From Promethearchaeati archaeon SRVP18_Atabeyarchaeia-1 (GTDB lineage: Archaea; Asgardarchaeota; Atabeyarchaeia; Atabeyarchaeales; Atabeyarchaeaceae): a stretch of 64,000 nt of DNA. Location of the stretch: assembly GCA_037308085.1 (NCBI GenBank), contig CP147779.1:224001-288000 (forward strand), in the 5' to 3' direction. Made by a program: the position numbers and the translations under genes. Numbering within the stretch: position 1 is the first letter of the stretch; every line of letters starts with the position of its first letter. Shown piece after piece: positions 7,487 to 30,786 of the stretch. A model generated the notes under the pieces. It did no database searches. It was not told where the DNA came from and was given only the letters and a program-made list of their open reading frames with translations.

Positions 7487-7577
7487 GGGCCCGTGGCCTA
7501 GTCAGGATAGGGCGTCGGCCTCCGATCGATTGGGAGACAGCCGATGGTCGTGGGTTCAAATCCCTCCGGGCCCGCCA
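7487..7577 (+). tRNA. tRNA-Arg(CCG) with 13-nt intron at 37/38 (7526-7538), CCA encoded
   Basis: Acceptor GGGCCCG/CGGGCCC, anticodon stem TCGGC/GCCGA, BHB central helix CTCC/GGAG with bulges GAT and ACA. Confidence 0.95.
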
Positions 7578-11645: not shown

Positions 11646-11740
11646 GGGCCCGTGGCCTAGTCAGGATAGGGCGCCGGCCTTCGACCTTGTTCCTGGAAGA
11701 CAGCCGGGGGTCGTGGGTTCAAATCCCTCCGGGCCCGCCA
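11646..11740 (+). tRNA. tRNA-Arg(TCG) with 17-nt intron at 37/38 (11685-11701), CCA encoded
   Basis: Anticodon stem CCGGC/GCCGG; BHB helix CTTC/GAAG, bulges GAC and ACA. Confidence 0.95.
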
Positions 11741-17728: not shown

Positions 17729-18190
17729 TTGTCAACCGTTTACCTAGTCCCAGCAAACGATTTCGTAAAGGCTTTGTCAGAGGAACTGAAGAAGGGCTAT
17801 GCTGAGTCCATCAAACCACCACCTTGGGCCGACTTTGTGAAGACTGCTGTCTACAAGACAAGCCAGCCTACACAGCGGGAGTGGTGGTACATTCGTTGCG
17901 CTTCTGTACTCAGAAAAATATATTTGAAGAAAATCATAGGCGTATCTCGCCTAAGGGTTGAGTATAGAGGTCCACAAACGAGGGGTGAAGGACCAATCCA
18001 TTCCAGAAGGGGTGGCGGTTCGATTCTCAGGAAGATGCTACAGGAACTTGAGACTGCCAGTCTTGTCGAGAAGAATGAGTCAAAGGGAAGAAGGCTAACA
18101 CCAAAGGGAGTCTCTCTTCTCGACCGCGTGGCGCACAAGGTAAGGTCTTCTCTGCAGAAGGAAGAGATCCCAGACTTGAAGAAGTACTGA
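17729..18190 (+). CDS. rps19e: Ribosomal protein S19e
   Basis: PPWADFVKT, WWYIRCASVLRKIY, GRRLTPKG. Confidence 0.97.
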   Translation: MSTVYLVPANDFVKALSEELKKGYAESIKPPPWADFVKTAVYKTSQPTQREWWYIRCASVLRKIYLKKIIGVSRLRVEYRGPQTRGEGPIHSRRGGGSILRKMLQELETASLVEKNESKGRRLTPKGVSLLDRVAHKVRSSLQKEEIPDLKKY

Positions 18191-18337: not shown

Positions 18338-18670
18338 TTGGCCGAAGACGAGGATATTGAAGAACTGAAGGAGAAAAGACTACGGCAGCTGCAGCAACAA
18401 ATAGTGGACGCTCGGAAGCAGGAGGAAGCGCGTAAGGAGTTTGAAGCTCAGAAACAATCCGCGCTTAGGCAGATCCTGACGGAAGAAGCAAGAAGCCGGC
18501 TGATGAATATCAAGATGGTCAAACCAGAATTCGCCGAACAACTAGAGATGCAATTGATCCAACTAGCTCAGTCTGGCAAGATATCAGCCCCACTAACGGA
18601 TCAACAGATGAAAGAGATCTTGGCGAAGCTGCAAAGCAAGAAAAGAGAATCCAAGATCTCATTTAGGTAG
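18338..18670 (+). CDS. PDCD5-like DNA-binding protein
   Basis: LRQILTEEARSRL..IKMVKPEFA; conserved position after rps19e. Confidence 0.95.
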   Translation: MAEDEDIEELKEKRLRQLQQQIVDARKQEEARKEFEAQKQSALRQILTEEARSRLMNIKMVKPEFAEQLEMQLIQLAQSGKISAPLTDQQMKEILAKLQSKKRESKISFR

Positions 18671-18794
18671 ATTCCGGGAAGGATCTGCTGAACTCGACAC
18701 TAGTAGGAATATTTAATTACGGATGAAGGCGTAAGTGAGAAATCATCTCCAAAGCGAGAGAGAAACGATAACCCAGGCAAAGGTGATGTCTAGC

Positions 18795-18999
18795 ATGGCG
18801 CGGAACAAACCGCTTGGAAAGAAATTGAGGTTGGGTCGTGCATTGAAGGAGAACAGGTCTGTCCCAACGTGGATTTCCCCTTGAACTCAGGTCGATGAGT
18901 GACTCAGTTTCAGAGGACCATTGAGTTGTGAAGACCAACAGGAAAGTCAGAACGCATCCTGGAAGGAGAAACTGGCGCAGTTCCAGTGTGAAACCTTAG
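18795..18999 (+). CDS. rpl39e: Ribosomal protein L39e, split by a BHB intron (exons 18795-18874 and 18924-18999)
   Basis: Spliced product [51 protein letters not shown] (51 aa); AGGTGA RBS; canonical position between PDCD5 and rpl31e. Confidence 0.95.
18875..18923 (+). other. 49-nt archaeal-type (BHB) mRNA intron
   Basis: CAAC/GTTG outer stem, GTGG/CCAT 4-bp helix, 3-nt bulges ATT and TGA, TCC/GGA inner stem; contains in-frame TGA at 18882. Confidence 0.88.
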
Positions 19000-19020
19000 G
19001 CAAAGGAGATGTGTCCCGAA

Positions 19021-19383
19021 ATGTCATCTGAAAAGGGCAAGCGTGCCGAGAAAGCAGAGTTGGCAAAGGAAGAGGCAAAGCCAAAGTCTATGGTGCCTGG
19101 GGAAACAGAGAGTAAGCCCGTTGCACCTGAGCACATGGAAGAGAGGCTCTACACGGTTCCTTTGGGAAAAACCCGCTATGCGCCGTACTACAAGAGATCT
19201 ACCAGGGCAATCCGCCTGATCAGGATCTTCTTCACCCGACATATGAAAGCTGAGAGAGTTATCATCACTAAGGATCTGAATGAAGCGATCTGGGCTAATG
19301 GGATCAGAAATCCTCCGAGAAGAGTAAAGGTTCGCGCCACAAAAGACGATGAAGGGAACGTCACTGTATATCCCGTTGAGTGA
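19021..19383 (+). CDS. rpl31e: Ribosomal protein L31e with charged N-terminal extension
   Basis: ERLYTVPL, LNEAIWANGIRNPPRRVKV. Confidence 0.96.
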   Translation: MSSEKGKRAEKAELAKEEAKPKSMVPGETESKPVAPEHMEERLYTVPLGKTRYAPYYKRSTRAIRLIRIFFTRHMKAERVIITKDLNEAIWANGIRNPPRRVKVRATKDDEGNVTVYPVE

Positions 19384-19464: not shown

Positions 19465-20133
19465 TTGTCCGTTGAGCGACTTGACTTCTTAGGCAACCCG
19501 AGTATCGGCGTGTACTCGCTGGCGGGAGAGGCATGTATTCTAGTTCCGCTTGGCCTTCCAGCTAAAACCATGAGAATCATGGAGCGAGTGCTCAATGTCA
19601 AAGCCATTGAGGCGAAGATCTGCCAGACTACTCTGCTTGGAATAATGATCGTGGGAAATTCCAATTCGATGATCGTACCGTATCTAGCCTCAGATGACGA
19701 AATCGAGTTTCTACAGGGTTCTCTGGGCGTCAAAGTATCTAGGTTGACAACCAACCTGACAGCGTTAGGAAACATAATACTGGCGAACGACAACGGCGCG
19801 ATAGTCCACCCAAAGCTTAGGGAGATCACGATGAAGTCTATCGAATCCATCTTGGGAGTCAAAGTGGTAGCAGGGAGGATAGGCGGAACTGGTCTCGTAG
19901 GTTCTTCCGCAGTAGCCACGAATAAAGGTGCGCTTGCCAGTCCGCGTGCAACTGATGAGGAACTTGACAAGATCAGCGAGGTACTGGGCGTCCCGACAAG
20001 CGTCGGCAGCGTAAACCGAGGAGTCACATATGTCAGGTCTGGGCTTATAGTAAATTCCCATGGGGCAATCGCGGGACGAGAAACTACGGGTCCGGAGCTT
20101 GACAGGATAGAGGAAGCCTTCGAACTGATATGA
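19465..20133 (+). CDS. eif6: Translation initiation factor 6
   Basis: GNPSIGVY, ALGNIILAND, GSVNRG, GRETTGPEL. Confidence 0.97.
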   Translation: MSVERLDFLGNPSIGVYSLAGEACILVPLGLPAKTMRIMERVLNVKAIEAKICQTTLLGIMIVGNSNSMIVPYLASDDEIEFLQGSLGVKVSRLTTNLTALGNIILANDNGAIVHPKLREITMKSIESILGVKVVAGRIGGTGLVGSSAVATNKGALASPRATDEELDKISEVLGVPTSVGSVNRGVTYVRSGLIVNSHGAIAGRETTGPELDRIEEAFELI

Positions 20134-30688: not shown

Positions 30689-30786
30689 GGGCCCGTGGCC
30701 TAGTCAGGATAGGGCGTCAGCCCTCTATGCAGCGGACAGGCAAGGAAAGCTGATGGTCGTGGGTTCAAATCCCACCGGGCCCGCCA
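30689..30786 (+). tRNA. tRNA-Arg(TCT) with 20-nt intron at 37/38 (30728-30747), atypical C33
   Basis: Same body as the other tRNA-Arg genes; stem TCAGC/GCTGA; relaxed BHB CCTC/AAGG, bulges TAT and AAA. Confidence 0.85.

Follow-up and report, generated by a model that had tools for sequence, protein, structure and literature searches.

The only gene for ribosomal protein L39e (rpl39e) in an Asgard archaeon of the class Atabeyarchaeia is interrupted by 49 nucleotides that are very likely a true mRNA intron, spliced by the tRNA splicing endonuclease EndA and the ligase RtcB. While the mechanism as such is not new, what surprises is that an Asgard archaeon would apply it to the mRNA of a ribosomal protein, and to those of several other core genes. 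Introns of the tRNA type that split protein-coding genes are very rare in archaea, and in this case a ribosomal protein gene would need mRNA splicing in a member of the group closest to eukaryotes.

Interruption of rpl39e

The DNA under study is a window of 64,000 nt (positions 224001–288000 of C1, the one contig of a closed genome of 2,808,651 nt, here called G000). In a six-frame search of this whole genome, the Pfam family Ribosomal_L39 (PF00832) matched at this locus only, and there in two halves (profile positions 1–22 and 20–42 in this search). With this search we could establish that rpl39e is a single-copy gene; an intact second copy was sought in the closed genome and none was found. 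The reading frame that opens with ATG at 18795 codes for M-A-R-N-K...S-V-P-T-W-I-S-P and is ended by TGA at 18882–18884 (the ORF listed in this frame spans 18735–18884). The second half of L39e picks up at 18925 in a different frame and continues for 24 residues to the stop codon TAG at 18997–18999. The frame break had been reported in a preliminary description of this DNA, and all of its coordinates checked out.

We recomputed the consequence of removing the insert that this description had proposed. Excision of nucleotides 18875–18923 does give a 156-nt ORF for an L39e of 51 aa, the same length as the intronless orthologue. The predicted splice junction reads ...CCAACGUGGAU/AGUUGUGAAG..., and the protein across it ...PTWIVVK.... 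Since 49 nt is 1 mod 3, the insert breaks the ORF both by a stop codon and by a change of frame. The identification as L39e is based on matches of both halves to PF00832 (exon 1 to about profile positions 1–18, E = 1.7e-6; exon 2 to about positions 21–42, E = 3.5e-7) and on the locus, which is the orthologous place in the conserved rps19e...rpl31e–eIF6 cluster (Table 1). Codon-usage scoring is uninformative for a protein as tiny and basic as L39e.

Table 1. Features of the rpl39e locus, introns of other protein-coding genes and genes for EndA. Plain numbers are positions in the window; positions with the prefix C1 refer to the whole contig. Introns and cuts are predicted.
Feature	Location	Strand	Remarks
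rps19e	17729–18190	+	upstream gene of conserved cluster
gene for dsDNA-binding (PDCD5-like) protein	18338–18670	+	directly upstream of rpl39e
rpl39e exon 1	18795–18874	+	M..PTW and first two bases of Ile codon
outer helix CAAC and 4-bp central helix GTGG, 5' strands	18865–18872	+	MFE fold; all exon bases
5' bulge ATT	18873–18875	+	predicted cut 18874/18875
BHB intron, 49 nt	18875–18923	+	holds in-frame TGA 18882–18884; interior is a hairpin
inner helix TCC, 5' strand	18876–18878	+	intron; MFE fold
inner helix GGA and central helix CCAT, 3' strands	18915–18921	+	intron; MFE fold
3' bulge TGA	18922–18924	+	predicted cut 18923/18924
rpl39e exon 2	18924–18999	+	third base of Ile codon, then VVKTNRK...VKP, stop TAG
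outer helix GTTG and extension (GA, AGACC), 3' strand	18925–18936	+	extension pairs with 18856–18863
rpl31e	19009–19383	+	10 nt downstream of rpl39e
eIF6 gene	19465–20133	+	same cluster
rpl39e intron, G000 (window)			49 nt, 1 mod 3
rpl39e intron, G001			53 nt, 2 mod 3
rpl39e intron, Ga0315306_10036254			52 nt, 1 mod 3
gatE intron	C1:2219068–2219108		41 nt, strict BHB; splits CLLEA/DEEPPH
pcm intron	C1:305604–305631		28 nt; restores TISAPH/MV
glyA intron	C1:654017–654054		38 nt; restores AEGWPGE/RVYAGC
ahcY intron	C1:488226–488259		34 nt; restores GHPSE/VMDMSF
EndA paralogue	C1:202595–203221	-	
EndA paralogue	C1:623841–624566	+	

The Bulge–Helix–Bulge Motif

The two junctions had been said to fold into a strict bulge–helix–bulge (BHB), the motif of archaeal tRNA introns. 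Unconstrained folding of nucleotides 18850–18942 returned the hBHBh' motif as both the MFE and the centroid structure, with every helix and bulge as described. In this fold the outer helix pairs CAAC (18865–18868) with GTTG (18925–18928) and is extended by GGUCU (18856–18860) on AGACC (18932–18936). The central helix of GTGG (18869–18872) and CCAT (18918–18921) consists of the pairs G.U, U-A, G-C and G-C, and the inner helix joins TCC (18876–18878) to GGA (18915–18917). The two 3-nt bulges are on opposite strands. In 5' to 3' order, the 5' strand has the outer helix, four nucleotides of central helix, the bulge and the inner helix, and the 3' strand has the inner helix, four nucleotides of central helix, the bulge and the outer helix, as in canonical archaeal tRNA introns. 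The fold energy is ordinary (z = -0.40; 60 of 200 shuffled sequences fold equally well), so that stability alone is no evidence for an intron and the case is made by geometry and by comparison. As to geometry, a strict motif of this kind with 11 pairs turns up in this genome at a rate of about 2e-5 per position and length (15,897 instances, with 137 lengths tried over 2 x 2.8 Mb). The predicted cuts coincide with the boundaries that are fixed independently by alignment to the intronless orthologue.

By rule, EndA cleaves behind the second nucleotide of either bulge, and this rule was calibrated on a tRNA gene of the same window. In the gene for tRNA-Arg(CCG) at 7487–7577, ARAGORN places a 13-nt intron between A37 and A38. 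Bases 32–35 (CUCC) of this tRNA form a helix with the intronic GGAG, and GAU and ACA are the two bulges. Each cut lies between the second and third nucleotide of its bulge, and the rpl39e motif shares this geometry. The rpl39e intron resembles archaeal tRNA introns in its hBHBh' geometry and cuts, which are identical in tRNA-Arg(CCG), in the presumed enzymes and in size, but its host RNA is an mRNA.

Two further observations belong here. The three tRNA-Arg genes at 7487–7577 (CCG), 11646–11740 (UCG) and 30689–30786 (UCU) have near-identical exons and differing introns of 13 nt, 17 nt and a greater length, respectively. A group I intron, a group II intron and an intein were considered for the rpl39e insert and rejected: the insert is only 49 nt long, where a ribozyme core would take hundreds of nucleotides, has no Rfam match and, unlike the protein-splicing domain of an intein, is out of frame.

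Assembly and Annotation

That the insert is a sequencing or assembly artefact in G000 is, in our judgment, exceedingly improbable. The complete 2.81-Mbp 'Atabeyarchaeia-1' genome, very probably the one analysed here, was published with validation by long reads (PMC11291895), a public contig from a separate assembly (Logan SRR28200043) shows no difference anywhere in rpl39e and its intron, and homologous inserts occupy the same site in the genome of another species and in a metagenome contig, as described in the next section.

Gene calls on the Logan contig list S19e, the dsDNA-binding protein (dsDNA_bind), L31e and eIF6, and rpl39e is absent from this list. We compared the spliced product with 5.8 billion proteins; the best match was the L39e of G002, a genome of the sister genus (92% identity), which one source assigns to Candidatus Atabeyarchaeum deiterrae, and no protein in this collection is identical to the 51-aa product. 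The prediction that gene callers would miss rpl39e is thus borne out both by an independent gene call that skips it and by the record for this genome, which holds no matching protein. Neither a spliced nor an intronless form of the junction was found in metagenome contigs, and the contigs that code for the neighbours eIF6 and L31e are only long ones of DNA type.

The consequences of such omissions go beyond one gene. rpl39e, gatE, glyA, ahcY and pcm are all missed or cut short by gene callers in this genome, and split genes that go unnoticed distort completeness estimates, metabolic reconstructions and tables of ribosomal-protein presence and absence. As an intron conceals rpl39e from gene callers here, the absences of L39e that have been tabulated for other archaea may merit a six-frame recheck.

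Comparison with Relatives

For comparison we used G001, a congeneric species, G002, a closed genome of 2.76 Mb from the sister genus, and further genomes of the phylum. Among 40 relatives, a split match to L39e occurs in G001 only; G002 and 37 further genomes have one uninterrupted match each, and the remaining relative, an incomplete genome (77% complete), has none. Of 400 genomes surveyed across the phylum, 376 contain a match to L39e, and it is split only in G000 and G001. Other Asgard genomes with two matches are unsplit, having a full-length gene together with either a weak match or a second full copy. A third carrier of the insert, the metagenome contig Ga0315306_10036254, came to light when metagenome contigs were scanned with the exon flanks.

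The L39e of G002 is uninterrupted, 51 aa long and identical to the predicted spliced product at 47 of 51 positions (92%). When the two genes are aligned as DNA, what is missing from G002 is exactly the predicted intron: G002 reads ...TGGAT/AGTCATGAAG, and the window reads ...TGGAT, the 49 nt and AGTTGTGAAG. The junction TGGAT/AGT that the EndA cut rule produces in the window is therefore the junction that stands in the DNA of G002.

The three introns share one site, and their interiors cannot be aligned. In all three carriers the MFE structure is the hBHBh' motif, and splicing gives an L39e of 51 aa. On the intron side, the central helix has CCAU in the window but CCAC in both other carriers, which turns the G.U pair into G-C. 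To the inner stem UCC/GGA of the window corresponds UUCCC/GGGAA in both others, so that both strands have changed and pairing is kept. The insertion and the compensatory changes for which relatives were compared were thus found in both G001 and Ga0315306_10036254, though the number of sequences is three and much of the motif is made of exon bases that are also under coding constraint. All three carriers have the same exon bases in the outer helix (CAAC/GUUG) and in the 5' strand of the central helix (GTGG); in G002, which lacks the intron, the outer-helix bases read CTAC/GTCA and can pair at only two of the four positions.

The divergence of the interiors bears on whether the intron has a second role. 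In the window, the interior folds as a hairpin and holds GAUGAGUGA-like bases, which would suit an intron that also encodes a functional small RNA of box C/D or K-turn type, like some archaeal tRNA introns. We consider such a role very unlikely, as the interior is unconserved in the two other carriers and the intron has no match among the C/D families of Rfam, even with a limit of E <= 10.

The carriers are well-separated lineages, as can be judged from their neighbouring genes: S19e, the dsDNA-binding protein, L31e and eIF6 are syntenic in the relatives and 65–83% identical. For rpl39e in the spliced frame, pN/pS (uncorrected) is 0.12–0.23 among carriers and 0.06–0.12 against G002, with pS of 0.34–0.73 overall and 0.34–0.45 among carriers. 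These ratios indicate that, ever since the intron was gained, purifying selection has acted on both exons in their joined register. They are difficult to reconcile with a pseudogene, in which the insertion would have inactivated rpl39e throughout the genus, L39e would be dispensable and the BHB-like fold would be fortuitous. A published table indeed lists some archaeal groups (Korarchaeota, Caldiarchaeum) as lacking L39e (PMC3082918), so that the gene need not be essential, and a pseudogene would also agree with the unexceptional fold energy and with the failure to find the spliced form in metagenome contigs or in the protein collection. Yet in three diverged lineages both exons are still open and stand in the register demanded by the splice rule, and neither exon has a further disabling mutation, even though synonymous sites of the carriers have diverged as far as stated above. 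Moreover, the interiors of the inserts have diverged past alignment while the ends that form the motif were kept with compensating changes. We regard a pseudogene as very improbable on these grounds.

The lengths of the three inserts speak to a different kind of explanation, in which the gene is functional and the insert is dealt with in translation, by frameshifting, by bypassing (hopping) or by separate translation of two half-peptides. Ribosomes bypass about 50 nt in gene 60 of phage T4, the insert in rpl39e is short as well, and exon 2 has a start-like GTG at 18928. However, inserts of 49, 53 and 52 nt differ in how they shift the frame (1, 2 and 1 mod 3), so no single frameshift explains all three, and the frame of exon 1 stops inside the insert in both G000 and G001. 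We know of no precedent for a 51-aa protein that is split into pieces of 29 and 23 aa. What is conserved is the BHB geometry, whose cuts give the exact orthologous junction and which also accounts for four other broken genes; translational recoding is, in view of this, scarcely a credible account of the insert.

For the intron, the simplest history appears to be a gain in the host genus after this genus had split from its sister genus.

Other Split Protein Genes

We scanned the genome for other broken genes with BHB junctions, as had been suggested for this lineage. The strict scan demanded the 11-pair motif, an ORF fusion and the motif as MFE structure. It gave five matches, against 0–4 for decoy geometries, and a second scan with the MFE filter gave four, against 0–1 for decoys. 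The only convincing cases from these scans are rpl39e and gatE. The introns of pcm, glyA and ahcY, whose motifs have short outer or imperfect inner helices, were missed and were instead examined by direct reading. Strict and relaxed scans without the MFE filter stayed at the level of the decoys (686 versus 646–686, 2226 versus 2053–2189, and 421 versus 372–437 matches). Since counts without the filter equal those of decoys and imperfect motifs are lost with it, the scans give no total of mRNA introns. So small an excess over decoys also means that the motif alone is weak evidence unless homology defines the junction.

In each of the four genes listed in Table 1 beside rpl39e (gatE, pcm, glyA and ahcY), a conserved protein motif reappears when the cuts are placed behind the second nucleotide of the bulges. 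In gatE, the insert is present in three of three Atabeyarchaeia genomes, with lengths of 41, 35 and 44 nt that are each 2 mod 3. Its outer helix has undergone compensating changes, and splicing yields the conserved motif (L/V)EAD(E/D)EPPH. Being present in all three, the gatE intron is older than that of rpl39e. By blastn against the genome, neither the rpl39e intron nor the gatE intron has a paralogue, and there is thus no sign of a repeated intron family. As the same cut rule repairs at least four core genes in addition to rpl39e, this lineage seems to splice mRNAs routinely.

Other filtered matches, near C1:1,520,000, 2,073,000, 2,356,200, 2,150,800 and 57,700, were set aside, since they look non-coding or like adjacent genes. 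One of these regions, C1:2150821–2150976, comprises 156 nt and has a BHB at its boundaries, with this BHB as the MFE structure (-65 kcal/mol). Its flanking 'ORFs' look non-coding (Arg/Ala-rich), and it may be an intron of a non-coding RNA or a chance match.

Splicing Machinery and Proposed Mechanism

The genome encodes two paralogues of EndA, each with the domains PF01974 and PF02778. The 209-aa paralogue has its closest match in 3p1z_B, the catalytic subunit of the heterotetrameric enzyme from Aeropyrum pernix (E = 5e-46). The other, of 241 aa, is divergent: its N-terminus is extended by a long stretch rich in E and K, its C-terminal domain is divergent as well, and it is probably the structural subunit. 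Together the two probably fit an (alpha-beta)2 heterotetramer. Two EndA paralogues have been reported for 44 of 60 Asgard genomes (preprint 10.64898/2026.10.13.758758). The ligase RtcB is encoded as well (C1:1025457–1026764; E = 2e-175).

In Atabeyarchaeia and Freyarchaeia, 92–95% of the tRNA genes contain introns, with BHB motifs that include non-canonical ones (PMC11291895), and this tRNA census was extended by a 2026 preprint (10.64898/2026.10.13.758758). ARAGORN finds only 22 tRNA genes in the 2.8-Mb genome, most of them with introns, which fits heavy interruption. Some of the 'introns' that it reports (660 and 1569 nt) are implausible, and standard tRNA finders fail on this genome.

From these components we propose the following course of events, in which cleavage and ligation in vivo, like the subunit composition of EndA, are inferred. 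The gene would be transcribed within the cluster of rps19e, the gene for the dsDNA-binding protein, rpl39e, rpl31e and the eIF6 gene. In the transcript, the exon sequences CAAC-GUGG-AU and A-GUUG would pair with each other and with CCAU of the intron, forming in succession a helix, a 3-nt bulge, a 4-bp helix, a 3-nt bulge and a helix. EndA, probably as (alpha-beta)2 heterotetramer, would cut after the second base of each bulge, and RtcB would ligate the exons and probably circularise the 49-nt intron. The outcome would be the 156-nt ORF and a 51-aa L39e, while unspliced mRNA could yield no more than a truncated peptide of 29 aa. Given that the only copy of rpl39e is interrupted, its mRNA would have to be spliced before translation.

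Relation to Known Systems

The BHB intron in the pre-mRNA of cbf5 is reportedly the subject of work by Watanabe in 2002 and Yoshinari in 2006. As of 2009, the intron in cbf5 of Crenarchaeota (Desulfurococcales and Sulfolobales) was the only confirmed BHB intron in an archaeal mRNA (Yokobori 2009; PMC2738675). The rpl39e intron is very probably of the same kind, in a new gene and a new phylum. Both are short BHB introns within the ORF of a gene related to RNA or translation, both would need the tRNA splicing endonuclease and a ligase for removal in a host with two EndA paralogues, and both are specific to certain lineages and lead to a gene that callers mis-predict. They differ in the host gene and in the host, which for rpl39e belongs to the Asgardarchaeota (class Atabeyarchaeia), so that the two are of one kind but not of one intron lineage. 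Furthermore, the gain in rpl39e appears to be recent, at the level of a genus, whereas cbf5 introns are distributed at the level of orders, and the genome with the split rpl39e has at least five introns of this type.

A second point of reference is the eukaryotic HAC1/XBP1 mRNA, which is cleaved by IRE1 and ligated by Trl1 in yeast or RtcB in animals as a regulated stress switch. There, as proposed for rpl39e, a protein endonuclease makes two cuts in an mRNA that are defined by stem-loops, a tRNA ligase joins the ends and the frame of the product is changed; the endonuclease and the RNA motif, in contrast, are different ones. RtcB and XBP1 are both mentioned in PMC8718801. Splicing of cbf5 mRNA has been demonstrated experimentally and that of HAC1/XBP1 mRNA responds to stress, whereas splicing of rpl39e mRNA is predicted from sequence.

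Introns in protein-coding genes go unmentioned both in the description of the Atabeyarchaeia genomes (PMC11291895) and in the preprint on Asgard tRNAs (10.64898/2026.10.13.758758). A full-text literature search, which does not cover every journal, turned up no description of an rpl39e intron, nor any of BHB introns that split protein-coding genes in Asgard archaea. This agrees with the preliminary description, whose authors knew of no described intron in an archaeal rpl39e. Its central reading, that this lineage splices the mRNA of rpl39e, held in every part that could be checked by comparing sequences.

Conclusion

With an intron that the host genus has in three lineages and its sister genus lacks, rpl39e provides a datable case. 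It can show how an intron enters coding genes and how codons of the exons are bent to keep a splicing motif.

Tentatively, we can also envisage that BHB introns are still spreading in Atabeyarchaeia, into any tRNA or mRNA whose exon bases are able to complete the motif, with rpl39e as a recent acquisition at the level of the genus and gatE as an older one at the level of the family; we hold this to be possible, with the odds somewhat against it. If it is true, the supply of L39e and of several core enzymes would depend on the capacity of EndA and RtcB, and the output of ribosomes and enzymes could be coupled to the tRNA-splicing machinery. These archaea would then offer a living case of a protein-only splicing system that colonises protein-coding genes with introns.
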